NCBI RefSeq assembly: GCF_036365525.1
Contig: NC_090395.1
Span: forward strand, 65,745,326-65,809,325
Direction of reading: 5' to 3'
DNA from: Heterodontus francisci
Lineage: Eukaryota
DNA: 64,000 bases
Both the position numbers and the translations under genes were made by a program. The notes beneath the pieces are model-generated. The model was given only the letters and a program-made list of their open reading frames with translations, did not search any database and had not been told where the DNA came from. Positions 10,909 to 58,372 of this stretch are shown here, piece after piece. Within the stretch, counting starts at the first letter, position 1, and every line of letters begins with the position of its first letter.

Positions 10909-10948
10909 ATGATGTGGATTCCGATTCTTCTCATTTGTTCCCTGCCCG
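10909..10948 (+). CDS. Gene A exon 1: signal peptide MMWIPILLICSLP(V)
   Basis: AAAATG start, hydrophobic leader, phase-1 donor G|GTGAG; paralogous to 54032-54068. Confidence 0.85.
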
Positions 10949-11383
10949 GTGAGCAACAGTCAGAGCTGGATCTTCAGATAATCAGTGTTAGTTTCTGTCT
11001 AGTGTACGGTTTATACAGTGAAGATGTTTAAATACTTGGAGACATGTAAAGGCACAAAATACTCAGCAAAAATAAATGAACAGTTTTGTGTGAAGTATTG
11101 TATCTCTTTTAGACTATACTATTGTACCACGGAAATATTTACCAATACACACTAAACTGCATTATTAATTGTTAATAGAAAAGGGACCATTTAATTTTTT
11201 TTAAGTTGCACGAATAACAATCAAAATGCAAAGGTAATCTCTTTAATCTGTAAAACATGATTTTTGTGTGATATCCAGTATACACTGACAACTGCAATGG
11301 TAATAATCCCTCCAACAGAAGATGACTCGGGTTTGCAATTGTTTCAGTCATTTAAAATACTTTTGATGAAATGTTGTTTTCTG

Positions 11384-11795
11384 AAGTTCTGGGTTCAGGT
11401 CCAACTTCCAGGGCTTGAGCACAAAAGTCAAGGCTGACCCTCCAGTGCAGTACTGAGGGAGTGCTGCAATGTTAAAGATGCTGTCCTTTTGGATGAGATG
11501 TTAAACTGAGGCCCCATCTGTTTGAGTGGATGTAAAAGATCCCGTGGCACTATACTGAAGAGCAGGGGGAGTTATCCCTGGTGTCCCGGTCAATATCTAT
11601 CCCTCTATCAACATTACAAAAAACAGATTATCTGGCCATTATCACATTGCTGTTTGTGGGAGTTTCCTGTGTGCAAATTGGCTGCCATGTTTTCTGCATT
11701 ACAACAGTGACTACACTTCAAAAGTACTTCATTGGCTGTAAAGTGCCTTGATCTGGTGTTTGTGAAAGGCACTATATAAATGCAAGTTTTTCTTT
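11384..11795 (+). mobile_element. DeuSINE-type SINE (AmnSINE1/SacSINE1-like)
   Basis: Deu-domain core tgcagtactgagggagtgctgca..ggatgtaaaagatccc..attgctgtttgtggg..aaattggctgcc and tail aaggcactatataaatgcaag. Confidence 0.8.
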
Positions 11796-12280
11796 TTTCC
11801 TAACCAAGCTTTTTCATTTCCACCCCATATTAATCTTATGATATGATGCTGTAATGGAATTGTATGATTAATACTGCCACCTCTCCTCCATTTATGATGA
11901 ATTGATTTTGTAACCAGCAATGTTAAACTCTCAGTCCCACCCGACTCTAACTCTGTTAATTTTATTACGTCAAACCGCCTCATAAAAATTTGTGCCTCTC
12001 GCTCACCCATTTTACACAGAATATTTGGTAATATTCCTCTTTTCAATCCTTCCTCTTTCTGATCTGATCTCTTTTATCTCCCTATTTCCCTCTTTAATCT
12101 TTCCTGCTCTTCTTCCAAATAAAGCTGTGACAACTTTTACACCTGAGGGGCAGACAGGGTCTCCGTTTAACGTCTCATCTGAAAGGCAGCACGACCCTCA
12201 GTATTGAACTGGAATGTTAGCATAGATTTTATGCTCGGGTTTCTGGACTGGGACTTGAACCCACAATCTACTGACTCAGA

Positions 12281-14513
12281 GGGCTGGGTTTTCAAAGGTG
12301 CGGGAGCAGGTGCACATGCAATTTGAAGTTTACATTCTTGAAGGTCGACACCAGGTCCTACTGCCTATGGGAAGGGCTGAGTAACATGATGTAGAGGCAC
12401 AAAATAAAGCTCAGCTGCTCCAAATTGCCACAGGGTAGCCATTGCTGGAACTGTAGAACAGGCTTTTCTCAGTGGTGAGTGGTAGGAATCCTGAGAGGGA
12501 CGTGAGCCTGCTGACATCACTTGGGCAGCTGGGGTTGGCAGGGGAAGGTCTGGTGAACGCACAAAGCCCAGCTGAGGGAGTTCAGATGGGAAAAGGCTAC
12601 TCTGACATTGGACAGAGCAGCCATGATGGGCTTCAGCAGATGCAGCCTCCTGGACGGCAGGAAGGCAGAGGAGAACAGCGGGGGGCTGCAAGGGCAAGAA
12701 GGTGCTACCCAAGATATCGGGTCTGCTGCACTCGAGTCAACTGCCTGCAAATGATGGAGCACCAATGCTGTAGCAATCCAGATAGATGGTCCTGAATCAT
12801 TGTGTTCTGATCCACAATGACCTGAAGCCTCGAGACCCCCACAGCAGTCCCTTACCTGCAGCCATAAAGATCTCTGCTGCCTGAATTTCGATGAAACCGG
12901 GTTGTTCCAGAGACCAGCTGTGGATCTAGGTGGCATCTCACAGTTGGCAGCTCCTCACGCCATCAGGCAGGTGACGGATGGACGGCGGGGGACCACACCA
13001 ACTTTGGCAGAGATTGGCCTGCGCAGGCACAGAGGGCATTGGGTTCAGCTTCGATCCCTGGATTCCCCCAGGTGCAGGGCATCATCAAGGCACCCAGTGA
13101 ACAGCCAATGAGATCCATCAACAGGAAGGGTTTCCACTCCCTCAATGTCCAACTGGTTTGCAACCATAACAAGTGCTTCCTCGATGTGTCCGCTGATTTT
13201 CCTGGCAGCTGCCATGATTCCTTCATCCTCCGTCAGTACAGGCCACCTTGGATCTTCACACCAACCCCTAAAGTGTGTGGTTGGACCATAGGGGCAAGGG
13301 ATATCCCTTGAATACATGGCTACTCAGCCGTCTACAGGAGCCCCAGACAGAGGCACAGAGGTGATACAACCAATGCCACCTGCTCAGCAGGTCAACCATT
13401 GAGCAGGCCATTGGGCGTCTGAAGATGTGATTCTGGTGCCTGGTTGGTCTGGTGACACCCTCCAATACCCTGCTGCAAGGTTCTTGGTCATTGTGGTGGA
13501 TTGCTGTGCTCCCCATTGCATGGACCTTGTGGACAGTGAGACTCTGGAAGGAGACAACTCATAGGGGGAAGAGCAGGAGGTAAGAGAGGAGGAAGAGGGG
13601 CAGAGGGGGATGACAGTGAAGAGAGAGAGGTGCTGCTGCTAGACGAAGAGGTGGCCTCTTCCTACCATGTTCCAGGAAAACGACCTCCCTCCTCTCCCTC
13701 ATAGACTCCAGCATTAGATCCAGGTGGCATCAATGAAGCGAGGGTCTGCACTGCCCCTAGTGCCAGGCCTCCGACCCAGCTTCAATCTGCCTATTTCCAC
13801 TTTAACTGAGCTTGGAAGGTGGGCAGGTGACCAATCCAATCCAAAGACATGAGTTGGAACTTTCAATATGACATTGAGTCTGCGAGCCTCATAATTCGGC
13901 AGCTTTTGAACTTTAACAGCTGTCAGCCTGGTTACCGCAGCATCTGGCAACCTGGAAATCTTATTGAGGTGCGGACTTGGTGGATTCAGGAGGGAAGTGC
14001 CTTCATACCCACCTCCTGGATCCAGCTACCTGCCTGAGGAGGCTCTGTGATTGGACTCCCCCAACCTCCGTGACCTTTCCCCCACAAGGCCTCTGACCTC
14101 CTGACCCCAAACCAGGCCCCGATCCCCCAACACCAAATTCGCCCACCAAGGCCATTGACATTCCCCACCTCAGGACCCAACCTTCCCCACAGACAGCCCC
14201 CTCCAGCTAACCCCCCCCCCCCCCCCCACCACCCTCTCCAATCGCCCTCCCACCCTGATTGCAGCTCCCCATCCGGTCACCCCTCACCTTCCCGATTGAC
14301 CCCCATTTCCAGTGTGAACTTACCTGCTGCTTCTGCCTGACTGGGGGTCCAGCTTGTCAATCAGGCTGGGCCTCTGGATGAGGAACTGATCATTGGTGTC
14401 AGAGACAAGCTTCTAAAACTCAACTGCATGTGGGGGAATCTAGAATTGTGGGATTCTCCCCAACTTTCTGACTGATCTGCTCCCTGTGAGTCACATCAGT
14501 AAAAATTCTGACC
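12281..14513 (+). mobile_element. Decayed Harbinger transposon in gene A intron 1
   Basis: HARBI1-like motifs GFPQVQG, NRKGFHSLNVQLVCNH, FPGSCHDSFIL, IEQAIGRLK. Imperfect TIR-like ends (gggctgggtttt / aaaattctgacc). Absent from the paralogous gene B intron. Confidence 0.8.
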
Positions 14514-14738: not shown

Positions 14739-15050
14739 TTTCAGGTGCATGGTGGGGAAGCAAGAATGTTACAGAAATTGTGGGAAGATCGATCACAATA
14801 GATTGTCAGTATGACAGATGGTACGCGTCAAATGTGGAATATTGGTTTCAGGGCTGGAGTCGCGATTGTTCAGTTTTAGTAACATCAAATTGGCAAAGTG
14901 AAAGAATGTCAATCACAGATAACAAGAGACAAGGAATATTTTTTGTTACAATGAAGGATCTTCGCTCAGGAGATGCAGGATGGTACAACTGTGGTATTGA
15001 AAATCTGTGCCTCGATCCAATGATTGCTGTAGAGATACAAATATCTTACG
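14739..15050 (+). CDS. Gene A exon 2: V-set Ig domain, CD300/pIgR/TREM-like
   Basis: VSGAWWGSKNVTEIVGRSITIDCQYD..VEYWFQGWSRDCSVLV..RMSITDNKRQGIFFVTMKDLRSGDAGWYNCGIE. Acceptor ctcctcag (in-frame alternative 6 nt downstream); phase-1 donor at 15051. Confidence 0.92.
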
Positions 15051-18808: not shown

Positions 18809-19131
18809 AATCCTTGTCTGTTCCTGTACTGAGATTTTTATCACAACCAAATGTCTCATGTTTTGGGGGCTCAGTGTCCTTCTCCTGTGAGTCTGTCTGA
18901 GGATCCCTTCCCATTCAGTACACATGGTATGAAAAGACCCCGTCTGAAGATTCAAAGATCTCTGACACCAATAAACTGGATCTACATTGTCAATCCTTCA
19001 CACAGAACATCATCAATATTACTGCACAGCCTCAAATAATCAGGGGAAAAAATCTAGTGAAATGGTCAATGTGTCAGTCTTCAATATAACAGGGAAGAAC
19101 TGCAGTTATGTGACAATAATCAGCAACATTG
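18809..19131 (+). pseudogene. Gene A exon 3: FCRL/PECAM-like C2-set Ig domain, disrupted
   Basis: ESLSVPVLRFLSQPNVSCFGGSVSFSCESV*GSLPIQYTWYEK..DLHCQSFTQ/(frameshift)HHQYYCTASNNQGKKSSEMVNVSVFNITGKNCSYV. TGA at 18898-18900; 323 nt where a phase 1-1 exon needs 324. Strong acceptor (t-run + cccacag) and GTAAGT donor. Confidence 0.88.
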
Positions 19132-19786: not shown

Positions 19787-20423
19787 AAGGCATGCTTGCC
19801 TTCATCGGTCGGGGCATAGAGTATAAAAATTGGCAAGTCATGCTGCAGCTGTACAGAACTTTATTTAGGCCACACTGAGAATATTGCGTGCAATTCTGGT
19901 CGCCACACTACCAGAAGGACGTGGTGGCTTTGGAGAGGGTACAGAAGAGGTTTACCAGGATGTTGCCTGGTCTGGAGGGCATTAGCTATGAGGAGAGGGT
20001 GGATGAACTCGGATTGTTTCCGCTGGAACGACGGAGGTGGAGGGGCGACATGATAGAGGTTTACAAAGTTATGAGCAGCATGGACAAAGTGGATAGTCAG
20101 AAGCTTTTTCCCAGGGTGGAAGAGTCAGTTACTAGGGGACATAGGTTTAAGGTGAGAGGGGCAAAGTTTAGAGGGGATGTGCGAGGCAAGTTTTTTACAC
20201 AGAGGGTGGTGAGTGCCTGGAACCTGCTGCCAGGGGAGGTGGTGGAAGCAGGTACGATAGCGACGATTAAGAGGCATCTTGACAAATACATGAATAGGAT
20301 GGGAATAGAGGGATATGGGCCCCGGAAATGCAGAAGGTCTTAGTTTAGGCAGGCATCAAGATCGGCACAGGCTTGGAGGGCCGAATGGCCTGTTCCTGTG
20401 CTGTACTGTTCTTTGTTCTTTGT
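19787..20423 (+). mobile_element. Young 5'-truncated CR1 LINE 3' end (older CR1 fragment at ~19440-19786 just upstream)
   Basis: ORF 19888..20343 QFWSPHYQKDVVALERVQKRFTRMLPGL..FFTQRVVSAWN; 3' UTR hairpin and (GTTCTTT)n tail. Confidence 0.9.
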
Positions 20424-20437
20424 CCTTGTTTCAATAG

Positions 20438-20558
20438 GACATGAATATTCTTGTGAAATTTCTTCAAGAGTATCACCAGCAACTCCACATTCCACAAGTA
20501 CAAATATACATTCCACTGATAATCAGAATCAATCTTTAGAATCCAAATCTACAGACAG
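20438..20558 (+). CDS. Gene A exon 4: Ser/Thr-rich stalk
   Basis: GHEYSCEISSRVSPATPHSTSTNIHSTDNQNQSLESKSTD. Phase-1 acceptor tcaatag; phase-2 donor AG|GT matches the TM exon. Confidence 0.75.
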
Positions 20559-23122: not shown

Positions 23123-23208
23123 CTTGGTTTTCATTGTGCTCAGTGTGCTGGGGGCCCTTCTTGTGTTTGTTGTTTCTCTACTTTTGCACCTGATGCAAAC
23201 AAAAAAGG
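23123..23208 (+). CDS. Gene A exon 5: transmembrane segment with no Lys/Arg/Asp/Glu in the core
   Basis: SLVFIVLSVLGALLVFVVSLLLHLMQTKK. Pyrimidine tract + tcacag acceptor (phase 2); donor G|GTGAGT (phase 1). Confidence 0.88.
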
Positions 23209-26200
23209 GTGAGTTTCTATTTTTCTTTAATCATTTCATTATATGTCAACAGTTGGTTGCAGGATATAAAGAGAACATAGTTTGTTGCAATCAACAGTGA
23301 GTAATCTTACATTATCTTAACCAAATTCCTGTCAGCAATAAGATAAGGCAGTCATGAATGGAATGAGTTAATGATTGCCTGCAAGCATGAATTTGGTCAG
23401 AGCACCTTGAGTACTCATACATAAAAATTATAGATCAAAAGATTTTCCCTGTATTATCAACTCTGAAAAAATAGTCTTTGATTAAAACATCAGTTCAAGT
23501 TTGAAGCCAAAGCTTTGTATGGTGGAAATCCAGATGTGTTTGGCTTTGACACACTACAAGAAGTTTATAACATCTGATAAAACCCACAATTTTCTAATTT
23601 TTCACCCATTTTAGTATGTTTTTTTAATCTGAAGTAATTAATCTTGAAGCAGTTTGTAGATTTGAGAAGAGGTTGTGCAAGCAGTGGTACATCTGATTGT
23701 ATACCGTACAATAACAGGAGGATTTGTCAACTTGACCATGTTTCAGAACTCTTCACTTCCAGTAAGAGCACAGGTTCAGCACAATTCTAGTAAAGACCAG
23801 TCTCTAACTCTTTCATCAAGAGACAGGTGATTAAAAGGTGTTGATTTATTAAATCTGTTCCTAATGTTATCATGATAATCACACACTCACATTTACGATC
23901 ATCCTTGCACATACAAATTTTACGTTATTCACCATAAATATGTTTCTTCTCTTTTTCTGCTAAGTTACTTCATGTTTAATAGTGATTTTTAATTATATGA
24001 ATGGTTCTGATTGAGTGAATAGGGATAAATGATTTCTTCTGGTTGGGGAGTTCGTGATGCGGGGTCATCAATTTAAAATTGTTACCAGGAGAGTGAGGAG
24101 AAAGGTTAGAAGTTTCTTTATTCAGAGCATCTTTGCAGAATGGAATGCCCTGTCACAATGAATGGGAGAGACGACTGGAGTTTTTAAAGTAAAAATTAGG
24201 ATAATGATTTAAAGCAAGTTGAAGAAGCAAAAGTATTGGTTTTCGATTGGTCCAGCAAAGTGTTACCACAAACAGCTATGGTTCTCTGAGAACTGCACAG
24301 ACTGCACTATGTAATTGACTGGAACTGATTATACGTACATAATTTGTATGCAACTATCTTCCACACTTCATTGATTTGAGAAATCATCCTGTTTTTATGT
24401 AGTTTTGTAGTTTTTGTCATGAGTTCTGTTTCTTCTAGTTCACAGAAACTCCAAGTAAACTCTATCACTGAATGGTTACAGAGCATTTTGGAAGGCGAGG
24501 GTGCATAGCCAGAGGTCATGGTCCACATTGTTACCAACTATATAAAAAGAAAGATGTATGAGGTCCTGCAGGCTGAGTTTAGGGAGTTAGGAAAGAGATC
24601 AGCAAGTGGGACCTCAAAAGTGGCAAATTCCGGATTACTCCCAAGACCACGTGCTAGTGAGTATAGAAATAGGAGAATACACCAGATGAATGCGTGGCTG
24701 GAGAGATAGTGCAGGAAGGAGGGCTTCAGAGTTCTGGAACATTGGGACTGATTCTGGGGAAGGTGGGACCTGTACAAGCCTAAACCTAAGGTCTACACTT
24801 AAACAGGACTGGGATGAATATCCTTGCAGGAAGGTTTGCTAGTGTTGTTGGGGATGGTTTAAACTAGCTTGGTAGGGGGAATGGGGAGCTAAGGGCAGTT
24901 TCAGATAGCACAATTTCAGGACAGGGAATGGGAGGCAGTAAATTAGTGAGTGACTCTGAAAGACAGAAGAAGAAAAGGCTAAAAAGCGTGCTGCACTGGA
25001 ATTTGCAGTGTTAAAAGGTATTTATTTAAATAATAAATAAAGCCAATGAGCAGAGGGGATAGATAGACAGATGGCAACACGATATCATTGCTATAACGGA
25101 AACTTGACTTAAAGAGGGGCAAGAATAGCAGCTCAACATCCCAGGATATAGAGTTTTCAGGCGGGATAGAGAGGGAGATAAAAAGGAGGGGGCATAGCAT
25201 TATTGGCTAAGGAATCAATAACAGCTGTGAGGAGGGATGATATGCTAAATTAATACGGGTTGAGCTCAGAAATTAAAAAGGGGCAGCCACACGAGTAGGA
25301 GTGTACTATAGACCCCCAAATAGTGAGAGAGAGATAGAAGAAAAAATATGTAGGCAAATTTCAGAGTCCAAAAACTATAGGGCAATGATAGTTGGGGATT
25401 TCAACTACCCTAATATTAAGTGGGATGCAAACAGTGTGAAGGGCACAGAGGGCACAAAATTCTTGAACTGCTTTCAAGAGAATTTTTTTAGCCAGCACGT
25501 AACAAGCCCAATGAGAGGGGGTGCAATTCTAGATTTAGTCTTCAGTAATGAAGGAGGGCAGGTGGATGAGGTAGCAGTGGGTGACCATTTTGGAGATAGT
25601 GACCATAATACAGTTAGTTTTAGCATAATCCTGAAAAATGACAATGAAAAATTAAGAATAAAAGTTCTAAATTGGGGGCAGGAAAATTTTATGAAGCTGA
25701 GAGGTGATTTGGCGAAAGTGGTCTGGATACAGCTACTTGAAGGAAAATCAGTGACAAACCATTGGGAGACTTTGAAAAACAAGATACTACAGGCACAATG
25801 TCAACATGTCCCCACAAAGATAAATGGTGGTACGGCCAAATCTCGAGGCCCCTGGCTATCTAGAAGCATACAGGGTAAGATTAAGCAGAAAAAGAAGGCT
25901 TATGATGATCACAAAAATCTTAATACTTTAGAAAGCCTGGAGGAGTATAGAAAGTGCAGGGGTGAAGTAAAAAAGGAAAGTAGGAAAGCAAAGAGAGGAC
26001 ATGAAAATTATTGGCAGGTAAAATCTAGAAAAACCCAAAGATGCTTTATCTGGACATTAACAGCAAAAGGATAACTAAGGAAAGGGTAGGGCCTATCAGA
26101 GATGCACAAGGGAACTTATGCATGGATGCAGAAGATGTCGGCAGGATTCTTAATGAGTTTTTGTCTCTGTCTTCACAAAGGAGAGGGATGATGCAGACAT

Positions 26201-26228
26201 TGTAGTAAAAAACGAGTGTGAAATATTA

Positions 26229-29200
26229 ACATAGAAACATAGAAAATAGGAGCAGGAGTAGGCCAATCAGTCCTTGGAGCCTGCTTCGCCATTCATTACA
26301 ATCATGGCTGATCATCCAACTCAATAACCTGTTCCTGCCTTCCCCCCATATCCTTTGATCCCTTTTGCCCCAAGAGCTATATCTAACTCCTTCTTCAAAA
26401 CATACAATGTTTTGGCCTCAACTGCTTTCTGTGGTAGTGAATTCCACAGGCTCACCACTGTCTGGGTGAAGTAATTTCTCCTCATCTCAGTCCTGAAAGG
26501 TTTACCTATATCCTTAGACTATGACCCCTGGTTCTAGACTCCCCCACCATTGGGAACATCCTTCCTGCATCTACCCTGTCAAGTCCTGTTAGAAGTTTAT
26601 AGGGTTCTATGAGATCCCCCCTCACTCTTCTGAACTCCAGCGAATATAATCCTAACCGACTCAATCTCTCCTCATACATCAGTCCCTGCCAACCAATTTT
26701 CTATCCATCACAATACACTACTCCCAATCCCATGCGCTTTAATTTTACATGCTAATCTCTTATGTGGGACTTTGTCGAAAGCCTTCGGAAAGTCCAAATA
26801 AACCACATCCACTGGCTCCCCCTCATGAACTCTACTAGTTACATCGTCAAAGAATTCTAGTCGATTTGTCAAGCATTATTTCCATTTCGTAAATCCATGC
26901 TGACTCTGTCCGATTCTACCACTGTTCTCCAAGTGCTCTGCTATACAATCTTTGATAATGGACTCTAGAATTTTCCCCACTACCAACGTCAGGCTGACTG
27001 GTCTATAATTCCCTGTTTTCTCTCTATCTCCCTTTTTAAATAGTGGGGTTACATTAGCTACCCTCCAATCTGTAGGAACTGTTCCAGAGTCTATAGAATC
27101 TTGGAAGATGACTACCAATGCATCCACTATTTCTGGGGCCACTTCCTTAAGTACTCAGGCCCTGGGGATTTATCGGCCTTCAATCCCATCAAATTCCCCA
27201 ACACCATTTCTCTACTAATACTGATTTCCTCCAGTTCCTCCCTCTCACTAAACTCTGTGTTCCCCAACATTTCTGGTATAATATTTGTGTCCTCCTTTGT
27301 GAAGACAGAAGCAAAGTATGCATTTAGTTGGTCAGCCATTTCTTTGTTCCCCATAATAAATTCCCCTGTTTCTGACTGTAAGGGACCTACATTTGTCTTC
27401 AACAATCTATTTCTCTTCACATACCTATAGAAACTTCTACAGTCAGTTTTTATGTTCCCCACAAGCTTACTCTCGTACTCTAACTTCCCCTTCTTAATCA
27501 ATCCCTTGGTCCTCCTTTGCTGAATTCTAAACTGCTCCCAATCCTCAGGTCTGTTGTTTTTTCTGGCAAATTTGTATGCCTCTTCCTTGGATCTAATGCT
27601 ATCTCTAATTTCCCTTGTAAGCCATGGTTTGCTTACCTTTCCCATTTTACTTTTGCGCCAGACAGGGATAAACAATTGTTGCAGTTCATCCATGTGCTCT
27701 TTGAATGTTTACCTTTGCCTTTTCACTGCTCTCCCTTTAAGAAATGTTTCCCAATACGTCATAGCCAACTTGCGCCTCATACTTTTGTAGTTTCCTTTAC
27801 TAAGATTCAGGACCCTAGTCTCACAAACAACGACATCACTCTCCATCTTGATGAAGAATTCTATCATATTATGGTCACTCATCCCCAAGGGGTCTCACAC
27901 TACTAGATTGTCAATTATTCCTCTCTGATTCCACAATACCCAGTCTAGGATGGCCTGTTCTCTAGTTGGTTCCTCAACGTTGGTCCAGAAAACCATCCTG
28001 TATACACTCCAAGAATTCCTCCTCTATGGTATTGTGACTAATTTGATTTGCCCAATCTATATGCAGATTAAGGTCACCCATAATTACAGATGTTCTTTTA
28101 TCGCATGCATCTATAATTTCCTATTTAATACCATTCCCAACATCACCACTACAGTTTGTAGCCAGAGCTGGCGGGCAGCCATAAAGACAGGGCTAAATTG
28201 TGGTGAGTCGAAGAGACTTAGTAGTTGGCAGGAAAAAAGACAGAGGCGCAAGGGGAGAGCCAACTGTGCAACAGCCCCGACAAACAAATTTCTCTGCAGC
28301 ACCTGTGGAAGAGCCTGTCACTCCAGAATTGGCCTTTATAGCCACTCCAGGCGCTGCTTCACAAACCACTGACCACCTCCAGGCGCGTATCCATTGTCTC
28401 TCGAGATAAGGAGGCCCAAAAGAAAAAAAGAAAGAAGTAACGTTTTTTGCCCCCTAGTGTTTCTCAGCTCTACCCATACAGATTCCATATCGTCAGAGCT
28501 AATATCTTTCCTCACTATTGCGTTAATTTCCTCTTTAAGCAGCAGTGCAACTCCACCGCCTTTTGCTTTTTTTTCTGTCCTTCCTAAATACTGAATACCC
28601 CTGGATGTTAATTTCCCATCCCTGGTCACCTTGGAGCCATGTCTCCATAATCCCGACTATATCATACCCATTTACATCTATTTGTGCGATTAATTCATCC
28701 ACCTTATTGCGGATGCTCCGCGCATTAATGCACAAAGCCTTAAGGCTTGTCTTTTTAACATTACTTGTCCTCTTCCCACTATTTTTCACTGTGGCCCTGT
28801 TTGATTCTGGCTCTTGATTTCTCTGCCTATCACTTTTCTTATTCCCCTTACTGTCTTTTGTTCTCGTCTTTGATCCCCCCTCCTCTGACTCCTTGCAAAG
28901 GCTCACATCCCCCTGCCATTTTAGTTTAAACCCTCCCCAACCACTCTAGCAAATATTCCCCCTAGGACATCAGTCCCGATCCTGCCCAGGTGTAACCCGT
29001 CCAGTTTGTACTGGCCCCACCTCCCCCAGAACCGGTCCCAATGTCCCAGGAATCTAAAATCCTCCCACCATCTCTTCAGCCACGTATTCATCTGATATAT
29101 CCTGCTATTTATACTCTGATTAGCACATGGAACTGGTAGTAATCCTGAGATCACTACCTTTGAGGTCCTACTTTTCAACTTACATCCTCATTCCCTATAT

Positions 29201-30798: not shown

Positions 30799-31106
30799 AA
30801 GAGGATAGCTATAGACTCCAGAATATCAGTCGTTTGGTTGAGTGGGCGGAAAAGTGGCAAATGAATTCAATCCGGAGAAGTGTGAGGTAATGCATTTGGG
30901 GAGGGCAAACAAAGCAAGGGAATACACCATAAATGGGAGGATATCGAGAGGGGTAGAAGAAGTGAGAGACCTTGGAGTGCATATCCACAGGTTCCTGAAG
31001 GTGGCAGGACAGGTAGTTAGAGTGGTGAAGGCAGCATATAGAATACTTTTCTTTACTGGCCGAGGTATAGAATACAAAAGCAGGGATGTAATGCTGGAAC
31101 TATATA

Positions 31107-32808: not shown

Positions 32809-32861
32809 ATACAAGCTACATTATTTGTCATGGAAGAGACAAGACTCTGAACGATAATCAG
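32809..32861 (+). CDS. Gene A exon 6: short cytoplasmic exon DTSYIICHGRDKTLNDNQ
   Basis: Acceptor attttcag (phase 1), consensus donor CAG|GTAAGT (phase 0); bridges the TM and ITIM exons in frame. Confidence 0.72.
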
Positions 32862-33924
32862 GTAAGTGTGAATTCCCTGAAAAATGCTTGGCAATTTGCA
32901 AAACCAGATTCCATAGAATTTACAGCACAGCAACAGACCATTTTGCCCTACACGTCTATGCTGTCACAGACATTAACTGTTCCTCTCTCCACAGATGCTG
33001 CAAACCTGCTGAGTATTTGCAGAAAGTTCTGGGGTTTTTTTTCAGATTTCCAGCATCCGCAGTATTTTGCTTTTATTATATTGGTCTATGCTGTCATTTA
33101 TGCTCCACACGAGCCTCCTCCCATCCCCTTCATTTAATTCTATCCCTAATCCTATCCTTCAATTCCTTTCTCCATCTTGTGCTTACCTCGCTTCCCCTTA
33201 AATATGTTTATGGTATTTGACTCAAATAATCCTTGGATTGATTACAATCTTTAATATCATTTCTGATGGGCAAAATGGGAGCTTCACCTTTACAGTTAGA
33301 AGTGAAACTTTGTTAATCGTTTAGTCCCACCTTTGGATTTGATGACTTTGCTCAGTCTACATTTTCATAATATTCCCATAAAGTCCCAATTCCAAATGCA
33401 AAGGCAGAAAAAACTTTTAAGATAACCTGATAGAGATCTTCAATAATATGGAAGGGGTTGACAGGGTAGATGTACAGATGATATTTCCATCTGCAGGTGA
33501 GACCAAAGCCAGGGGTCATGAATAGAAGATAGTCACTGATAAATGGAATAGGGAATGAAGGAGAAATATATTTACTCAGAGACTGGTCAGAATATGCAAC
33601 TAGCTACCACATGGAGCATTTGAGGTGACGGTCATAAATGCATTCAAAAGAAAGCTAGATAAGCACATGAGGCAGAAAGGACGAGAAGGATAAACTGATG
33701 GGGTTAAATGAAGAGGGGCGAGAGCAGGATTGTGTGGAATGTGAATGTTAGCATGGACCCATTGGGCCGAATGGCTTGTTTCTGTGTTGTAGATAACTTG
33801 CAAAACTTTGCAAAATGCTGTAAACTGATTTGCAAAATCTAGAAATAGATTTCTCCCCATAACAGCACAAATCATCATGCAAGTTAATCAGAAAAAAATT
33901 GGACCTTCTCTATTTTAGCAATAG

Positions 33925-34332
33925 GCAGCAGTGGAAGAGACCATTCAATACGCAAGTGTAAACCACATTCGAAGTGGCTCAGCAGAAACATGTAGCGAGG
34001 GAGTGGCCCAGTTGAATAATGATGAAAACGGAATCACATATGCAGCAGTGCAGTTTCAAAAGAAATCGTCAGCACGGAGCGGTGAGGTGGCAAAGCGTTT
34101 AGTTAACAACAAGGACAGTGTCATCTACAGTGGTCTCAACATTCAAAGCCGGCCCCCAAAGAACAATCAAGAAAATCCATCAGTTGATACTCCGCAGGAC
34201 CTCTCAAATGGTCATTTATGTCACTGCTACTCATTAGGAAAACCATTCATCTGGTGCATCTGTTGCTTACTGCTCTTACTTTGCATTCCAGTTGCATTGA
34301 ACTTCATCTGGCATGAACCAACTGTAACTTGA
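33925..34332 (+). CDS. Gene A exon 7: cytoplasmic tail with ITIMs IQYASV, ITYAAV, VIYSGL (4th motif VIYVTA in +1 frame, stop at 34237)
   Basis: ORF 33931..34332 has three consensus (I/V)xYxx(L/V) motifs; phase-0 acceptor AG at 33923-33924. Confidence 0.85.
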   Translation, partial: AAVEETIQYASVNHIRSGSAETCSEGVAQLNNDENGITYAAVQFQKKSSARSGEVAKRLVNNKDSVIYSGLNIQSRPPKNNQENPSVDTPQDLSNGHLCHCYSLGKPFIWCICCLLLLLCIPVALNFIWHEPTVT

Positions 34333-42100: not shown

Positions 42101-45100
42101 TCTATATTAGCAGCCAGTCCCTAAACCCATCAATTAATAAGTTCTCATCATGTTCAAATCCCCCGTGGTCTTTACCGTCAACATCTTTGTAACGCCCTCT
42201 GCGAACTCTGTATTCCTCCAACTCTGGCTTCTTGTGACATCCCATATTTCATTCACCTCATCATTGACGGCATGTCCTCAGCCTCTGGGTCCTAAACTCA
42301 GCATTCCTTCACCAAAACTCTTCACATTCTTTGATCAAACTTTTGTACCAATTTTGTCTGATAATGTTTCTGTGAAATGACTTAGGATGTTCTACTGTGT
42401 TAAAGGCACTATAAATGCAACTTATCATTGTTGTTGTTGACCCACTAATGAACGAACAATAATAAATGAATGTGCTTCTCAAGCCAATGCTATTGTCAAT
42501 GAGCGATCTACCCCTTCGATTTCGTTAAGAGTGAAAACTTTATCCAGTTATTTATTCAGTTTCACAATTCCATTAACTCCTTAAATACATTAAGAGTTAA
42601 AAGAGTTGGGCTGTCAAAATAATGTGTATTCAAGCTTGTGCAACTTGCAATGGTCATCGTGGTTTGAAACTGCAAGAAAAATGTGATGAAAAATGTGTTG
42701 ATATTTTCACAGTTAATGTGTGACAGAAACCCGTGAAAGTACAATGTCAGTCGGTGTTACTAAATGAAGGGTGCCAGACAAAGCACTGCAATATTATATA
42801 GGCAATCATTGTCAGTGTTGGTCCATTTATTGGATGCCAGATGATGCAGATGGAAGAAACAGTGGACAGGTATACAGCAGACAAATGACTCACATCATGG
42901 TGTGGACAAATTACAATAACAACAACAATTTGTATTTATATAGTGCCTTTAAGATAATAAAACATCCCCCTCACAGGAGCCTTTATAAAACAACCTATGG
43001 CACCAACTCACATAAGAAGATATTTGGGCAGATGACCAAAAGCTTATTCAAAGAGGTAGATTCAAGGAGCGTCTTAAATGAGGAAAGCAAGGTAGAAAGG
43101 CGGAGAGGTTTAGGGAGGGAATTTCAGAGCTCAGAGACCAGACAGCTGAAGTCATAGCCACTAAGGGTGGAGTGATTAAAATCGGGAGGGATGAGGCTTT
43201 TAGTTTAGTTTTAGAGATACAGCACTGAAACAGGCCCTACGGCCCACCGAGTCTGTGCCGACCATCAACCACCCATTTATACTAATCCTACACTAATCCT
43301 ACCACATCCCCACCTGTCCCTATATTTCCCTACCACCTACCTATACTAGGGGCAATTTATAATGGCCAATTTACCTACCAACCTGCAAGTCTTTTGGCTG
43401 TGGGAGGAAACTGGAGCACCCAGAGAAAACCCACGCAGACACAGGGAGAACTTGCAAACTCCACACAGGCAGTACCCAGAATTGAACCCGGGTCACTGGA
43501 GATGTGAGGCTGCGGTGCTAACCACTGCGCCACTGTGCCACCATGAGGGAAATTTGGAAACAAGGATGGGAATTTTAAAATTGAGGATTTTCTTAACTGG
43601 GAACCAGTGTAAATCAGTGAACACAGGGGTGAGCGAGGCTTGGTGTGAGTAAGGACACAGGTAAGTTTTGGATGACTTCAAGTTTATGGAGAATGTGGGG
43701 GCCTGGCCAGGAGTGTAATGGAATAGACAAGTCTAGAGGTAACATAGACATGATGAGTGCTTCAGCAGCAGATGAGCTGAAGCAGGCGTACAGTCAGATG
43801 ATGTCAAAGATGTGGAAATAGGTGGCCTTACTGACGGCATGGATATGTGATTGGAAGTGCATCTCGTGTCAAATATGACACCAAGGTTGCTAACAGTCTG
43901 GTTCAGCGTCAGACCGTTGCCAGGGAGAGGGATAGAGTAAGTGGCTAAGGAACAGGATTTGTGGCAGCGACCAAAGAGAATGGCTTCAGTCTTTCAATAT
44001 TTAATTGGATCAAATTTCTGCTCATCCAGTACTGGAGGTTGGGCAAGCAGTCTGACAATTTAGACAGTGGAGTGGGCGAGAGAGGTGGTGGTGACGTGGA
44101 GCTGGGTGTCATCAGCGTACTTATGGAAACTGACATTGTGGCTTTGGATGATGTCACTGAAGGGGAGCATGTGGATAAGAAGCAGGAGGGAGCCAAGGAC
44201 AGATCTTTGGGGGACACCAGAGATAGCTGTGCAGGAGCGGGAAGAGAAGAGAAGTCAGGTGATTCTCTGGCTATGGTAACTTAGATAAGAATGGGAGAAG
44301 GCAAGTGCAGTCCCACCCAGCTGGACAATGGTGGGGAGACATTGTCGGAAAATGGTGTGATCAATTGCACCAAAGGTTTCAGAGAAGTCAATAAGAGTGG
44401 AGGGGCAGTCTACCTTTGTCGCAGTCAAATTAGATGTCATTTGTGCTCTTGATAAGTGCCATTTCAGTACTGTGGCAGGAGTGGAAACGTGATTAGAGGT
44501 ATTCAAATATAGAGTACTGGGAAAAGAGATTTTTGCAAGCCACAACTAGTTCAAGGACTTTGGAGAGGAAAGAAAGGTTCGAGATAGGGGCGATAGTTTG
44601 TAAGAGCGGAGGGGTTAAGAGGATTAGTTTTATGAAGAGGGGGTGGTGATGGCAGATTTGAATCTGAGGTGAGGAAACCATTAACAATATCAGCTAACAT
44701 TTGTGCATGTGTCTGGGGAGCCTGGGTTCCTCCCAAAGGATACAGGACATTTCTCCTTCTTTACACCTCTTCCATCAAAACCTCCAGTGCAATGTCCAAA
44801 AAATCCTTGGTGCATGCTTTCTGGGATGGTCAACCATTGTTGATTCTTCCACAGCGTATATCCAGATTGATCTCAGCACTGGCACCAGCCACGATGCACC
44901 TCCCCTTCAAGATACGTAGGCAAGCTTTAAGTAGTATGAAGCACTCACGATATTAGCCCACCTGCTGATGATGCAGCCAATGAACAGTGTGGGGAGCACC
45001 AGCTGCACGTAGAAATCATGCAAATTAACAGGCAACACGGAGTTAGCATACGGTCTGCAGTGCATTAAACAGGCATGTGTTAATCACGCCTTGTCATTCT

Positions 45101-46978
45101 TGTGCCTGTTTTCTGAAGGTATCCAATTTTACCCCCTGCATGTCTCAATAAGGATTCTTCAGTCTGATTGGTTAAAGAGCCTCCCTGTTTCTTGGCCTGC
45201 TTGCAGACATCACAGGTCCCCTGTAGAGGGTGACGTGCTGGTTTAGACGCCAGATGACAGCAAGTTTACACTCAAAATCCGATGAAAACTCCACAGACAG
45301 TGGTCAGCGTAGTGAACAGCAAGTGTCTTTCCTTCACCACTGATGGCAAAATCCAGGCCAATGTATCTTTATAATATTAGAAAGGGAGACTCGCTGGTGT
45401 AAATAAGAATGTGTTTTTCTTTATTATAGCAAATAAATACATTCTAAACTTGTGAAGATTTTTGAAATCCTACAACCGTAATTACATGCATTAAGCCTGA
45501 TCCCCTGTTTGACCACCACTGCTCTTGACCCTTCCACTGCCTCAGTGTTATCAGGCTGCTTGTCTGAGATCCTATCCTTGATGAGTGCAAATATCTTCTA
45601 CTTAAACAGTGGGAAGACCAAAAACATTGTTTCGTTCCTGCCACAAAGTCTGTTCCCAAGTTACCAATTCCATCCCCCTCTCTGGACTCTGTCTGAGGTG
45701 GAAGCAGACTGTGTGCAACCTCCATGTCCTATTTAACCCTGAGTAGGGCTTCCGACCTCATTACCCTCTCCATCACCGAGGCTGCTGATACTTACCTCTG
45801 TAATATTACCTGTTTCTGTTCCTGTCTCAGTCCAAGTGCATCTGAAACCCTCATCCATGCTCTTGTTACATTCAAAGTAGAGTATTCCAATGCTCTCTTT
45901 GCCAGCATCCCATCTTCCAAATTCCACAACTTAAGCTCATTCAGAACTCTGCTGCCTGTGTCCTAACTCACACCAAGTCCTAATCACTCAGTATCTCTGC
46001 ACCCGCTGATCTACATTCACAGCTGGTCGCCAAATGCCTCAATTTTAAAATCATAATCTTTGTGTTCAAATCCCTCCATGGCTTCACCCCTCCCTATCTT
46101 TGTAATTCCCTCTGTGAATTCTGTGCTCCTTCAACTCTGGCTTCTTGTGCAATTGCACACTTCCATCGCCTCACCATTGATGGCAATATCTTTGGTCATC
46201 TTGGTCCTAACTCCAGAATTTCCTCACTAAAACTCTTCACTTTCTTTTAATAAATATTTGGTCAACAGTCCCAATGTCTCCCTCCTTTGGCTAGGCAATA
46301 ATTTTTGTCTGCTTACATTCCTGTGAAGCATCCTGGGATGTTTAACTATGCTAAATGTGCCATATAAATGCAAGTAATTTCTGTTGTTTTTGATCCCACT
46401 AGTGATTGAGCTTCTCAAGCTACTGCTGTTGTCAATGAGAAGTATTTTCTTTTAGTTTTGTTAAAAGAGAAGTCTTTATCCTTGTGTAACTAATTGTCTT
46501 CAGAGGCCTGAATTTTCCTACTGGTTTCAATGTTTGAGAAATATTAGTTTTGTATAGAATGCTGTGAGTGAGTGTTTCATCCTAAATGAACACAAATTCA
46601 GTTTTAGCAGAATTCCAGCAACTCCTCAAATACTTTAAGGGTTAAAAGAGTAGGGCTCTGAAAAAATACATCTGTGTTCAAGTTTGTTGCAGCTTGAAAC
46701 AGTCATGGTGGTTTGAAACGGTTAGAAAAATGTGTTGATCTTCTCAGGGTTGATGTGTGGCAGAAACCCGTGAATGTAGAATGACAGTAGGTGTTAGTGA
46801 CAAAATGAAGGGTTCTGTTTGCAGCTGTGAGAAAAAGAACTGCACTGTTACAGGGCTTTGTATAGGCAGCATCATGGATGCTGGGCCATTTACTGGACAC
46901 CAGGTGAGGCAGATGGAAGGAACTATGGACAGGTGTACAGGGATCATACAAACCACACCATGGTGTGGACAAATTACC
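39130..46978. repeat. Imperfect tandem triplication of a 3-4-kb intergenic cassette (Penelope-like RT debris + L2 fragments)
   Basis: Homologous blocks at 39580-40050, 42440-42910, 46395-46978; at 41507-42420 and 45376-46380; and at 40911-41500 and 44773-45370. Confidence 0.8.
43197..43542 (-). mobile_element. V-SINE (HE1-like) with TSD ATGAGG
   Basis: Antisense copy of the 5223 SINE; ATGAGG at 43191-43196 and 43543-43548. Confidence 0.88.
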
Positions 46979-49632: not shown

Positions 49633-52190
49633 GGCAGAATTTTAACTGACAAGGTGGAGAGGGTTCAGGTGCAGGAGGGGGACAGGTTAAATATCTGAAA
49701 AATGCCAGCATGTTGGAAATCCAACATATTCTGCCACCCCCACAACTTCTGGATTTTATTGGAGCAGGTTCCGAGGGGAGTGAGAAACTTCCATGACGTT
49801 GTTGGCTTAGTGATTTAAATATTTAAATAATCATTTAACTCAGTCTTTAAAGCTAAATTCACGCTTTAAGCCAGTGCATGGGTTTCCAGAGCTTTGTGGA
49901 ACTCGCCAGGGTCATTGAAGTTATTGAACAATGAAACCGACAGGCTGGAATGCCTTTAATGAGTGAAACTGTATAGTTGCTGCCCTGCCTAAGTGAAAGG
50001 CCTGTTCTCACAGAACTTGTTGTGAGAACATGATTTCACTGCTTCACAGGTAATTTCAATTTTTTAGAAGTAATTTCACCTACCTTGGACTTTATTCACC
50101 TTGATCTGATCTTCCCTGCTGTCAGCCTTCACTGCAGCATGGGAGTAGCTTATGCAGCTCTACCTTGGACCTCTGATGAGGAACAAGAGGAGTAGCAACA
50201 CCAACAGCACAAGAAGCAGCAGGAAGAACAACAACAACAGTAGCTGCCTTTCCCGCAGCCACGTGTCGCTCCACAGGACTGTGGGGATGGCACACAGCTT
50301 CAGCTCGAAGGAGACAATACTCCCAGCACAGGGCGTACAGACAGCGGATCAGCTTCCTCAACATGATGGAGGCTCAGGCTGTCATGGCAGGCTAGAACGA
50401 AACTTGCTTTCAACAGGACCAGGTGGGCCGGCATTGCCAGCGGCCATCAAGGTTATCACAGCCCTGAATTTCTTCACCTCTGACTCTTTCCAGGGATCTA
50501 CTGGTGACATCTCCAGGATCTCACACTCAGCTGCCCACAAGTGTATCTCCCAGGTGATCGCTGCCAGGTTTACCGTGGATGCCATTTTTGTCCACCTTGA
50601 CACTGATGAGACCAATCAGACCCAGAGGGCTCTCACATTTGCTGCAGTGGCTGGATTCTCACAGGTACAGGGAGTCATTGACTGGACACATGTGGCTATC
50701 AAGGAGCCTACAGATCATCCTGGTGTATTTATCAATCAGAAGGGATTCCACTCCATTGATATTCAGCTGGTATGTGACCACTGGAAGGTTTTCATGCATG
50801 TCTGTGCAAGATATCCTAGAAGCTGCCATGATTCCTTCATTCTGAAGCATACACAGCTCCTATAGGTATTTGCATCTCCACACAGAGTGATCGGGTGGTT
50901 CCTTGAAGACAAGGGCTGCCCACTGAGGACTTGGCTGATGACACCTGTTAGGAGCTACCACTGATGCTGATGAAAGATACAACAAGAGCTATATGACTAT
51001 GGGCCGATCATTGAGCAAGCCATTGGGTTGCTGAGATTGCGATTCAGGTGCCTGGATAGATCTGCAAGGTGGGGGGGGGGGGGGGGGTGCGGGAATGGCC
51101 TACAGTATGGACCAGCAAGGCTGTCAAGATTGATAGTGGTCTGCTGTGCCCTGCACAACAAGAGGCTACAGAAAAGAATGAAGCTGCAGGTGGTGGATAT
51201 GCTTTCTGGTCTGCATCCTCCGATGAGCAGGAAGAGGAGTAGGTGGAGGAAGAGTAGTAGTAGTCGTCGTCGGAGCCTGAGATGACCAGGGTGCCTGCAT
51301 ACAGTCACCTGACTGCCAGAGAAGCTTGTGACAGACTCAGAAGGCAAGCCTCAGATACCCTGAGTGCATGAAGCCATGTGGCACTCCAATGTTAAACCCT
51401 CTGCCCCTGCATACCCCACCGCCCACCTTCCATTCTGGTTATATCATTCTCCTGAAAGCTAATATCCATTTGGTATTTGGGAAGCAACAATGTAGTTGGC
51501 AGGACAATGGAGACTTCAAATAAAGCACGTGGTTCATTGAAATTTTCACAGTTATAACATTGACATTGTTATAAACACCCAAGTGAATCCCTCCGTGCAA
51601 CTAAGAAGTCTTACTCTTCTGCTTTTTATTACTCCTGCCTGGTGCTACCCCTGTGGCTTCAGCAGAGCTAGAGGCAGGCTGCTTTGATATATGAGATACC
51701 AGTGGAGGACATGCTCTGGGATTTGGAACCCCTGAGGGCCCTGCCAAAGATTGCCCCACTACACCTGTGCAGTGGCAGACTCAATAATCTGCATAGGACA
51801 GCATGTACAGCTCTGTCCGTGGTGGGTGATTGGGTGTAGTTGGGGTGTTTGGGTGAAAGGGATGAGAAATGGGAGCGCCTTAAGAAAAGTTCCCTCTTCC
51901 ATTTACCGTTTCTCCATCTTCCCTCTCATGGTCCACTGCACTTCCCTGCTAGCCAAGAGCTGGAGAACACTTTGCTGCACTTCAGTGAGGCACAGAACAG
52001 CCAAAACCTGGCTTTCCTCCATTCTGTGTTAAGTGGCAGGCATTGGTCTGGCCAGCATGCACCTGATTGCCTGCCACATCTGGGGGAATGGCAACATTTG
52101 TGCAGGTTGATGTGAAGGATGCATGTATGATGGCACTAAGTTGAGGGTGAGTGTGAGTGTTGGCTGTGTTAGCCAGTGCTGGAGCTTTGA
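49633..52190 (+). mobile_element. Decayed Harbinger transposon (HARBI1-type transposase ~50150-51290); right end approximate
   Basis: ALNFFTSDSFQGSTGD, GFSQVQGVIDWTHVAIK, NQKGFHSIDIQLVCD, YPRSCHDSFIL, then a stop; LRLRFRCLD, CCALHN. Left end ggcagaatttta. Confidence 0.85.
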
Positions 52191-53945: not shown

Positions 53946-54031
53946 TCGTTCATCTTAGATACTTACTGGGTTTTTGATAAATAAGAGCTCAGTGACAGAC
54001 GACTAGTTCTGATCAGATTTCTGGAAAGAAA

Positions 54032-54068
54032 ATGCTGTGGATTCTGATCCTTATTTGTTCTCTGCCTG
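54032..54068 (+). CDS. Gene B exon 1: signal peptide MLWILILICSLP(V) of a CD300/pIgR-like receptor
   Basis: AAAATG start, hydrophobic leader, G|GTGAGT phase-1 donor. Confidence 0.87.
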
Positions 54069-55199: not shown

Positions 55200-56075
55200 G
55201 AACTATGAGGAGGATAGCATAGACCCAAATGGACATAGAGAGGTTGGCAGATTGGGCAGGCAGGTGGCAGATGAAATTTTTTGCAAAGAAGTGTGAAATG
55301 ATTCATTTTGGTAAAAGAACACGGAGAGACAATATAAAATAAAAGGTACAATTCTAAAGGGGGTGCAGGAGCAGAGGGATCTGGGTGCATATGTGCATAA
55401 ATCATTGAGGGCGGCAGGACAAATTGAGAGAGTGGTTAATGAAGCAGACAGCATCCTAAGCTTTATTAATAAGGGCAGTGAGCACAAAAGCTCAAAAGTT
55501 ATGTTGAACTTGCATAGAACAAGAGTTCTGGCCTCAACTGGGGTATTGCGTCCAGTTCTGGGATCACACTTTAGGGAAGATGTGAAGGCATTGGAGAAGA
55601 AGTACAGAAAAGATTCATGAGAATGGTTCCAAGGATCAGGAACTGCAGTTACAAAGATTGATTGAACAAGTTGCAAACTGTTTTCCTTGGAGAGGAGAAT
55701 GTTGAGAGGAGATTTGACAGAGGTATTCAAAATCATGAGGAGTCTGGACAGAGAAGATAGGGAGAAACTGTTCCCATTGGTGGGAGGATCGAGAACAAGA
55801 GGGCACAGATTTCAGGTCATTGACAGAAGAAGCAATGGTGATATGAGACAAACATTTTCATGGGTGGTTAGGATCTGAATGCACCGCCTGAGAGTGTGGT
55901 GGACACAGGTCCAATCGAGGCATTCAAGAGGGAATTGGATTGTTATCTGAAAAGTAAGAATGTGCAGGACTATGGGGAGAAGGCAGGGGAATGGCACTTG
56001 GTAAATTGCTCCTTCAGAAAGTCAGCACAGACACAACGGGCCGAATAGCCTTCTTCTGTGCTGCAAAGATTTGGT
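55200..56075 (+). mobile_element. CR1 LINE 3' fragment
   Basis: WQM, QRDLGAYVH and ERRMLRGDLTEVFK motifs plus 3' UTR. Confidence 0.85.
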
Positions 56076-56513: not shown

Positions 56514-57216
56514 GGCCGGAATTTTAAATCCCCTCAACGAGCAGGCTGGTGATGGGGATGGGGGGTGGGGGACATAAAATTGAGTGGGAGGTGGGGACCA
56601 TTTCTGACTTTTTCTGCCCCCACTGCAGCGAGAAACGGCCCACCTGCCCCAGGCCATCAAGACCCTCAAGTGGCCAACTAACTGCCTCTTAAGGGCCTCC
56701 TCCTGCTGCTGCTGGTATTTTACCCACAATAGCTAAGTGACATAGGCCCCAGGATGACTGTGGGGGTGGGGGTGGAGGGTGGGGAGGCCCTCATGATTTG
56801 GTACCTTGTGCTCAGGGAGGGCTGCCCCCCATGGCCCAACTGTCCCCACGAGACAACACTCCCCCCCGCCCTCCTTAAGCAAACCCCCCTTCCTTGCCAG
56901 GGCCCGCCGTTTGTGACCCCTAATGGGGCCCCAAAAACTTACAGGGCCATCCTTCCTCTTGCTCCTGTTTACTGGGTGTAGTCCCAGAAGTGGCCAGTGC
57001 TCCCTTTGGCGCTGCTGGGACTAGGGGCTGCCAGACCGCTGATTGGCTGGCAGCTCTATTAAGTGTGATTTCCTGCCTCAAGGAGGTGGAAGCCCTGCTC
57101 AAGGCCAATTAAGGGCCTGGGGAGCACTTATGGCTCCCCAGGCCTTGCAGAGGTGGGCTTGCCACCGACTCTTCGGCCGGTGGGTGTGGCCTCCCACCCA
57201 ATGTAAAATTCCGGCC
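56514..57216. mobile_element. Harbinger-type MITE
   Basis: Perfect 13-bp TIR GGCCGGAATTTTA/TAAAATTCCGGCC and 3-bp TSD CAT. Confidence 0.87.
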
Positions 57217-57360
57217 CATGTTTGCCTTCCTTATCCAAATCCTGCTGCAGTATCGGTTGCAGGCAATAAACTTGAGGGGATAGAAATTGATTTGGCTGTT
57301 GCCATGGTGCTGAATGAATTGGAGAAAAATATCAAAGTCAAATTGTTGTTGCTGTTAGAA

Positions 57361-57805
57361 AGAAAGACTTGCATTTATATAGCACCTTTCACAACCCCAG
57401 AATGTCCTAAAGCTCTTGACAGCCATTCATTTATTGGAAGTGTCACCACTGTAGTAATGTAGGAAAAGTTGTAATGTAATTTGGGAGATTTGTGCAAAGC
57501 AAGGTCCCACAAATAGAAACATGATGATGGTCAGATAATTTGTTTCTTCGTGACTGTTGGTTGAGGAATAAATGTTGGCTTGGACACTGGGAGAATTCCT
57601 CTGCTCTTCTTCAAAATAGTGGGAACGTTTACTTCCACCTGAAAGGATAGACAGGGTCTTGGTTTAATGCCTCATCTGCAAGGCAGCACTCCCTCAATAC
57701 TGCATTGGAATATCAGCTTAGATTTTATGTCTGGGTCTCTGGATTGGGACCTGAACCCACAACTTTCTCATTCAGAGAAAAGAGTGCTAACACTGAGTCA
57801 TGGGC
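57361..57805 (-). mobile_element. DeuSINE-type SINE (its 5' part is shared with gene A intron 1 at 12140-12280)
   Basis: Antisense tail gacttgcatttatatagcacc and Deu core. Confidence 0.78.
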
Positions 57806-58051
57806 GACACAATAACAATAGTGACAGGTACTTCAAAAGCAAATCATTGTCTGAAGTGCTTTAATACATCCTAAGGCTGTGATAAGGCACTATATTAATG
57901 TTTTCTTTTGTTACAAACTAGAAGGAATTCAACTATTTGAATAGATGCAGGGGATCAATTCCTCTGTACACAGTGGTAAGTTTCATTAAACTGCATCTGT
58001 TTGTATTAAGCAACTAATTCCAGTTCAATTTCTGAAATGTTGTCTCCTCAG

Positions 58052-58372
58052 TTTCAGGTACATTGTGGGCAAAAGGTAAAGTAACAGGAATCGTGGGAAG
58101 AGCGATCACAGTAGATTGTCACTATGATGAACGGTACCGGTCATATGTGAAATATTGGTGTCGTGGCTGGAGTCGCCAATGTTCAGTTTTAGTGGAAACA
58201 ACTGGGCAACATGGATGGCAAGGAAGAATGGCAATCATAGATAACAAAAGACAGGGCGTATTTGTTGTTACTATGAAGAATCTTAGCTCAGACAATTCAG
58301 GATGGTACAGCTGTGGTATTGGCGAATCTGGCTATGATTCAATGTATTCCATAGAACTACAAATATTTAAAG
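58052..58372 (+). CDS. Gene B exon 2: intact V-set Ig domain, CD300/CMRF35/pIgR-like; downstream exons not seen in window
   Basis: VSGTLWAKGKVTGIVGRAITVDCHYDERYRSYVKYWCRGWSRQCSVLV..RMAIIDNKRQGVFVVTMKNLSSDNSGWYSCGIG. Has the family four-Cys pattern (C, KYWC, C, WYxC); phase 1-1. Confidence 0.93.

Follow-up and report, generated by a model that had tools for sequence, protein, structure and literature searches.

The window analysed here, that is, the whole stretch of 64,000 nucleotides of the shark Heterodontus francisci at G000:C25:65745326-65809325 (contig C25), contains two immune-receptor genes, A and B, which are assigned below to the modular domain immune-type receptor (MDIR) family, and of which gene A is a pseudogene. 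Leader, exon and lesion positions are given in window coordinates unless C25 is named. The leaders lie at 10909 (gene A) and 54032 (gene B), in the same orientation and 43.1 kb apart; by blastn, promoter and intron-1 pieces are 71-88% identical between both genes, and a 647-nt V-exon region is 79% identical, which bears out the preliminary description of two co-oriented paralogues 43 kb apart with homologous promoter, leader, intron 1 and V exon. The seven exons previously proposed for gene A are likewise recovered as homologues, with every splice site intact (AG/GT ends), and since all of them recur, in unchanged order, in the neighbouring genes, the set is not a product of chance. The transmembrane exon starts at 23123 (phase 2), downstream of where the open frame would put it.

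10690..10908, plus strand: gene A upstream region, 72-80% identical to gene B and recurring ahead of other leaders
10909..10948, plus strand: gene A exon 1, signal peptide
14739..15050, plus strand: gene A exon 2, CD300-type V domain, open, with the C-strand Cys changed to Phe
18809..19131, plus strand: gene A exon 3, disabled MDIR C2 domain of 323 nt, with one nucleotide deleted after 19005
18898..18900, plus strand: gene A in-frame TGA within the C2 exon; the spliced frame ends at residue 147
20438..20558, plus strand: gene A exon 4, Ser/Thr-rich stalk
23123..23208, plus strand: gene A exon 5, uncharged transmembrane segment (inhibitory type)
32809..32861, plus strand: gene A exon 6, first cytoplasmic exon
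33919..34237, plus strand: gene A exon 7, tyrosine-motif tail, with TAG at 33922-33924 provided that splicing takes the conserved acceptor
54032..54068, plus strand: gene B exon 1, signal peptide
58052..58372, plus strand: gene B exon 2, intact CD300-type V domain
G000:C25:65810441-65821415, outside the window: remaining gene B exons (frameshifted C2, intact C2, stalk, NxxR transmembrane exon)

The disabled gene A and its paralogue B

Gene A is a pseudogene, and its alignment with the paralogues reveals four frame lesions in two exons. In the C2 exon, the TGA occupies a codon that reads CAG, CGG or TGG in the paralogues, and the 1-nt deletion, which falls outside any homopolymer, leaves 323 nt against 324 nt in seven intact paralogous C2 exons (the other 13 C2 exons of the cluster comprise seven of 324 nt, four in-frame at 312-321 nt and two that are themselves frameshifted). 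In the last exon, the TAG is codon 2, where the intact genes G1 and C carry TTG, and a 1-nt insertion near 34200 places the fourth (terminal) tyrosine motif out of frame. The spliced frame of gene A thus stops after residue 147, while those of its neighbours G1 and C are open to the tail, with 415 residues as modelled (the database model of gene C has 417 residues versus 415 in the splice model used here). No stop stands at the TGA-equivalent position in any of 265 relative C2 domains (Gln in 153, Arg in 74), which derive from annotated proteins and are hence selected for open frames. The complete receptor with multiple immunoreceptor tyrosine-based inhibitory motifs (ITIMs) formerly proposed for gene A consequently has to be abandoned: its quoted C2 motif had been pieced together from two frames across a stop, one 'x' in it being the in-frame TGA, and, regarding the three or four tyrosine motifs ascribed to its tail, the tail exon does exist but is stopped at its second codon and has motif 4 out of frame.

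It is very improbable that gene A is instead an intact inhibitory receptor, with lesions that stem from faulty assembly or from a rare null haplotype. Its intact splice sites and its exons, 78-92% identical to those of intact copies, would suit such a gene, and the TGA has been read from the assembly alone, which counts against our reading; however, the lesions are four, separate and accompanied by the loss of a conserved Cys (Phe replaces the C-strand Cys of the CD300-type second disulfide), the deletion does not lie in a homopolymer, and the neighbours G3, G4 and G5 are likewise disrupted. The deletion is furthermore carried by an independent contig from another sample and study (run X5, depth 4.3), because this contig aligns gap-free over 18919-19131, with two differences, while contigs of runs X13, X18 and X20, presumed RNA runs of other organisms, possess the base deleted in gene A. 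No RNA run was listed for the exact C2 stretch, an absence that says nothing on expression. Any transcript of gene A would be a target for nonsense decay, or the source of a V-only fragment.

Gene B is of a different type. Outside the window it continues with a frameshifted C2 exon of 323 nt, an open C2 exon of 318 nt and a stalk exon of 73 nt, followed by a transmembrane exon that carries an NxxR motif and ends in basic residues (activating type). Including the first C2 exon, its frame meets a stop after residue 215; without it, 280 codons are open to the end of the transmembrane exon, and no last exon was found in the exon mapping of the region. Gene B is therefore predicted from its exons to be not inhibitory, with an activating-type transmembrane segment.

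Transposase-like fragments, presumably resembling Harbinger/PIF transposases, occur at 12895-13560 (gene A intron 1) and 50149-51285 (between the genes), and many reverse-transcriptase fragments, which we take to be of the long interspersed nuclear element (LINE) type, at 807-5240, 19789-20343, 25277-32067, 38650-39012 and 55203-55811; gene A intron 5 is made up largely of them. An old segmental repeat of about 3.8 kb, in two to three copies of 63-89% identity, lies at 39145-46811 between genes A and B.

A cluster of V-C2 genes and its family

A search of the shark's own genome gave 22 V matches (21 at C25 65.24-65.89 Mb and one at 59.15 Mb), 14 C2 matches and four tyrosine-tail exons, counts which are lower bounds. 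Within 1.05 Mb that was mapped, nine V-C2 genes and nine more distant V exons form a 650-kb cluster, in which two of the nine genes are clearly intact (G1 and C), four disrupted and three uncertain:

G1: inhibitory type, single V-C2; intact
C: inhibitory type, single V-C2; intact
A: inhibitory type, single V-C2; disabled
G4: inhibitory type, V-C2-V-C2; 1.5-kb insertion in the first V, stop ahead of the last motif
G3: Arg-transmembrane type, (V-C2)x3; stops in V1, frameshift in V2
G5: Arg-transmembrane type; stop, frameshift, Arg lost
G2: Arg-transmembrane type; stop immediately after the transmembrane segment
B: Arg-transmembrane type; conditional, open only if the first C2 exon is skipped
D: Arg-transmembrane type; V and C2 open, gene model partial

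Phase-1 V and C2 exons have been duplicated as V-C2 units in one to three repeats, giving V-C2, V-C2-C2, (V-C2)2 and (V-C2)3 ectodomains, and the units are joined either to an uncharged transmembrane segment and a four-tyrosine tail (four genes) or to an Arg-bearing, NxxR-type one with a short basic end (five genes, one of which has lost the Arg). Copies have often been lost through stops, frameshifts and insertions. The birth-and-death MDIR cluster suggested beforehand is thereby borne out. Among the listed matches of contigs from the presumed RNA runs of other organisms, none joins V to C2 in a transcript; V and C2 exon bins were covered, and bins flanking C2 were not.

The nine divergent V exons (C25:65244554-65424082, minus strand) have no C2 match, and some have candidate transmembrane exons; on sequence grounds they would be a CD300-like V-only subcluster adjoining the MDIRs. 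Two V exons, at C25:65686140-65686448 and 65731131-65731439, represent a subtype from which the C-C' disulfide is deleted, and which is likely to be old, since in the tree it clusters with V domains from other sharks.

Alignment assigns the cluster genes to the already described MDIR family. With the intact C2 of gene C as query, the database matches include skate MDIR3 and MDIR5 by name. The gene C protein (P0092, 417 aa) is identical to MDIR3 at 187 of 405 aligned positions (46%, E 9e-110), from the V domain through the last tyrosine motif, and to MDIR5 at 135 of 225. Identity to the corresponding MDIR domains is 57-72% for three intact C2 domains and 48-53% for the V domains of genes A and B. 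In a FastTree tree of V domains (102 rows, relatives subsampled to at most four per species, midpoint root, no mammalian rows), A and B fall within the branch holding MDIR3/5 (support 85, not starred) and the distant V exons outside it; species-specific expansions are seen together with older subtypes, at modest support. MDIRs have been described as structurally similar to CD300, TREM, FCAR and pIgR, and as forming multigene activating/inhibitory families (PMC3031540).

The comparison extends to 122 relatives from 23 chondrichthyan species, including a chimaera (the named database hits without P0092 and two other hits, one of the two hit lists giving 120 of 132). A C2 directly follows V in 116 of them, with up to nine repeats; 32 have an Arg-type transmembrane segment, 52 have at least two ITIM-like motifs, and 14 species have both types. 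Most have been automatically named 'pIgR-like', 'FCRL5-like' or 'CMRF35-like'. The combination of V, C2 and tyrosine tail is the published skate MDIR3 design and no new architecture; MDIR3 already is a V/C2 protein with an uncharged transmembrane segment and tyrosine tail. Calling the family inhibitory is half right: tyrosine-tail genes exist, but the family is paired, with an Arg-bearing transmembrane segment in gene B and skate MDIR5.

Domain identity, ligand and signalling

By sequence score and by model, the V domain is CD300lf-like and not pIgR-like. As a single domain it scores 67.7 bits with CD300lf, against 42-51 with pIgR D1 and 33 with FcmuR, and its C-terminal half 50.8 bits against at most 13.4 with human pIgR domains; its model is best superposed on mouse CD300lf, with a root-mean-square deviation (rmsd) of 1.1-1.5 Å, and CD300lf fills the top eight Foldseek ranks. 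The CD300-type label of the preliminary description is thus retained on both measures. Of the 11 own V domains, 8 have both Cys of the C-C' second disulfide; that of gene B is among them, that of gene A is not.

The C2 domain scores best with FCRL5 (best domain 29.6 bits), with motif similarity to FCRL5 D3-D8, so that its resemblance to FCRL domains stands, though it is weak per domain. Its four Cys are each conserved in 254-265 of 265 domains, and they suggest a second disulfide, predicted as Cys60-Cys98; the domain would act as a disulfide-stabilised spacer. Folded alone, it reaches a predicted local distance difference test score (pLDDT) of 85.6 with an extra C-terminal strand, while the full-length model is of low confidence over C2. 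Foldseek with the C2 model gave no match at E <0.001, with FCRL5 not among the listed fold matches, and the ESM Atlas matches are generic Ig_2/Ig_3 and FCRL2-fragment clusters.

As regards the ligand, the intact copies appear to keep most of the Ca2+/phosphocholine loop of CD300lf, in an incomplete pocket. CD300lf positions 94, 96, 98 and 100 are named for this binding in PMC6166816; in a 47-to-47-residue match, whose position mapping is inferred from the matched end points of the alignment, G1 carries Lys, Gly, Asp and Met there, and none of the 11 own V domains tested lacks the pocket Asp. The V domain may accordingly, like CD300lf, bind the head group of a phospholipid together with Ca2+, and by this analogy lipid sensing is the most likely function. 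The tyrosine tails (four motifs in gene C, two fitting the strict ITIM pattern) would recruit SHP/SHIP phosphatases, and the Arg-bearing copies would signal via a CD3zeta/FcRgamma-type adaptor; NxxR transmembrane segments bind FcRgamma in Xenopus (PMC2413239). By analogy, the intact genes are likely to act as paired on/off receptors for membrane lipids. Taken as a whole, a shark MDIR cluster in which gene A is broken and the intact neighbours are likely paired receptors of this kind is, in our opinion, probably the right explanation.

Several observations pull the other way. Instead of Trp89, all 11 own V domains carry Ser or Asn, Asp98 is kept in just 164 of 276 relative V domains, and the pocket Asp aligns in 0 of 5 skate MDIR V domains. 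A single zeta/FcRgamma-type transmembrane segment, closer to CD3zeta, was found among 59 candidates of the genome (G000:C10:79534756-79534842), among which a separate FcRgamma was not detected. Nor is diversifying selection established: the ratio of nonsynonymous to synonymous substitution rates (dN/dS) comes to 0.96 for V (bootstrap 0.7-1.3), to 1.14 for its loops (0.57-1.69) and to 0.67 for C2 (0.45-1.04), none significantly exceeding 1, in sets to which disabled genes also contribute exons.

It could also be argued that the V domains bind variable protein or microbial ligands and not lipids, the activating copies being counter-decoys. Mean identity among paralogues is 69% for V versus 82% for C2, and 49% for the V loops versus 86% for the C2 core, the pocket residues vary in relatives, and a virus makes use of this very pocket in mouse CD300lf (PMC6166816); yet the dN/dS values above and the invariance of the pocket Asp in the own V domains are at odds with it, and we regard this alternative as rather unlikely. 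Less likely still is that the family is the shark immunoglobulin receptor, equivalent to pIgR, FcmuR or FCRL and binding antibody constant regions. Many members carry 'pIgR-like' or 'FCRL5-like' database labels, C2 scores best with FCRL5, the contig also carries a PFKFB gene at 58.4 Mb, 7 Mb from the cluster (one of three loci found), and the role would be vacant, as PMC4016189 reported no pIgR or FCRL homologues in sharks. Against it, the high whole-protein scores with pIgR and FCRL5 are sums over repeats, the per-domain and C-terminal-half scores favour CD300lf, FCRL5 is missing from the listed C2 fold matches, and rapid copy turnover would fit a fixed self ligand poorly. The pIgR/Fc-receptor identity raised at the outset therefore finds no backing, either in the per-domain scores, which are well below those with CD300lf, or in the immediate flanks described below. 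The reported absence of pIgR and FCRL in sharks fits the present data if MDIRs are a separate lineage, and MDIR membership with probable lipid sensing remains our preferred interpretation.

Genomic setting and comparison with known receptors

One flank of the cluster holds a mu-class glutathione S-transferase (GST) exon and an AHCYL-type gene, the other a G-alpha-i gene and exons of the CCDC48 family; the scans covered 150 of 1221, 150 of 1545 and 150 of 955 candidate open reading frames, and small genes may have been missed. We take GSTM, AHCYL1 and GNAI3 to lie together at human 1p13.3. NFYA is found on the same contig at 67.7 Mb. Tweety, presumably a human CD300 neighbour (17q25-type neighbourhood) and the sole CD300-neighbourhood marker searched, gave in a strict first look 18 matches on C24, C26, C45 and C11 and none on C25, so the cluster does not lie beside the tested CD300 marker. 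A search for the IL10 family found no match at any locus, its controls included, and carries no information. No literature on pIgR-like/CD300 synteny near AHCYL1 was found in a search which did not cover subscription journals.

The lone CD300-type V exon at C25:59153271-59153564 lies some 14 kb away from a gene for ATP synthase b, with a candidate transmembrane segment near 59174531. As a PIGR candidate it was set aside, being a single V next to that gene; it may be the TMIGD3 orthologue, if TMIGD3 is, as we assume, near ATP5PB in human. A 786-codon proline-rich open frame without Pfam match (L139:4566-6923, plus strand; C25 ~59.085 Mb) was also noted, as was a partial PDZ domain (Pfam) between G-alpha-i exon matches (L074:3587-4525, minus strand; C25 ~65.924 Mb), presumably syntrophin-like and possibly a retrocopy fragment.

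A wider proposal can be put forward tentatively, and we doubt it more than we believe it: MDIRs would be the main paired phospholipid-sensing system of cartilaginous fishes, with a Ca2+ pocket of the CD300lf type carried on a four-cysteine spacer specific to MDIRs, and their site between AHCYL1/GSTM and GNAI3, on a chromosome with NFYA (TREM neighbour), PFKFB (PIGR neighbour) and a V gene in the TMIGD3 position, would be the ancestral home of the CD300/TREM/pIgR V-domain family.

Gene A is minor in itself, as a pseudogene of a family reportedly named in 2006. The use of the cluster is that it provides a clean genomic map of MDIRs, and many shark 'pIgR-like' and 'FCRL5-like' database entries prove to be MDIRs, which bears on whether sharks have a true pIgR; the V domains of the two intact genes, G1 and C, can be assayed for lipid versus antibody binding. 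Cluster map, paired transmembrane types, lipid-pocket conservation and synteny are modest additions, of which no earlier account was found in the literature searched, which was without key MDIR papers.

The closest known system is that of clearnose skate MDIR3 (ABC86797.1) and MDIR5 (ABC86800.1), which we take to be cDNA clones and which are 46-60% identical to the intact neighbour C. Leader, V and C2 types, V-C2 repeat unit and stalk are common to both, and the uncharged transmembrane segment with tyrosine tail of MDIR3 and the Arg-bearing one with short tail of MDIR5 correspond to the two cluster types. They differ in layout (V-V-C2-V-C2 in MDIR3 and V-C2-V-C2 in MDIR5, against a single V-C2 in A, C and G1), the skate V domains are without the aligned pocket Asp, and gene A is disabled, unlike the skate MDIRs. 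With CD300lf/CLM-1 and CD300a the cluster shares the V fold (rmsd ~1.4 Å, 36-38% identity), the C-C' disulfide in most copies, the Asp/Met of complementarity-determining region 3 (CDR3) and a paired receptor logic; mammalian CD300 ectodomains, however, consist of one V and no C2, whereas the cluster genes have C2 exons after V, and activating CD300s mostly carry a Lys in mid-membrane. FCRL5 has similar C2 motifs, but two additional conserved Cys and an additional C-terminal strand set the MDIR C2 apart, and FCRL ectodomains are C2-only while the cluster genes also carry V domains. pIgR, FCMR and FCAMR share the V-domain superfamily and are the source of the automatic database names; MDIRs depart from them by a per-domain similarity lower than that to CD300lf, interleaved C2 domains, signalling tails, multigene turnover and different immediate flanks. 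Finally, the NxxR transmembrane segment of the Arg-type genes is shared with TM1 of the Xenopus XFL receptors.

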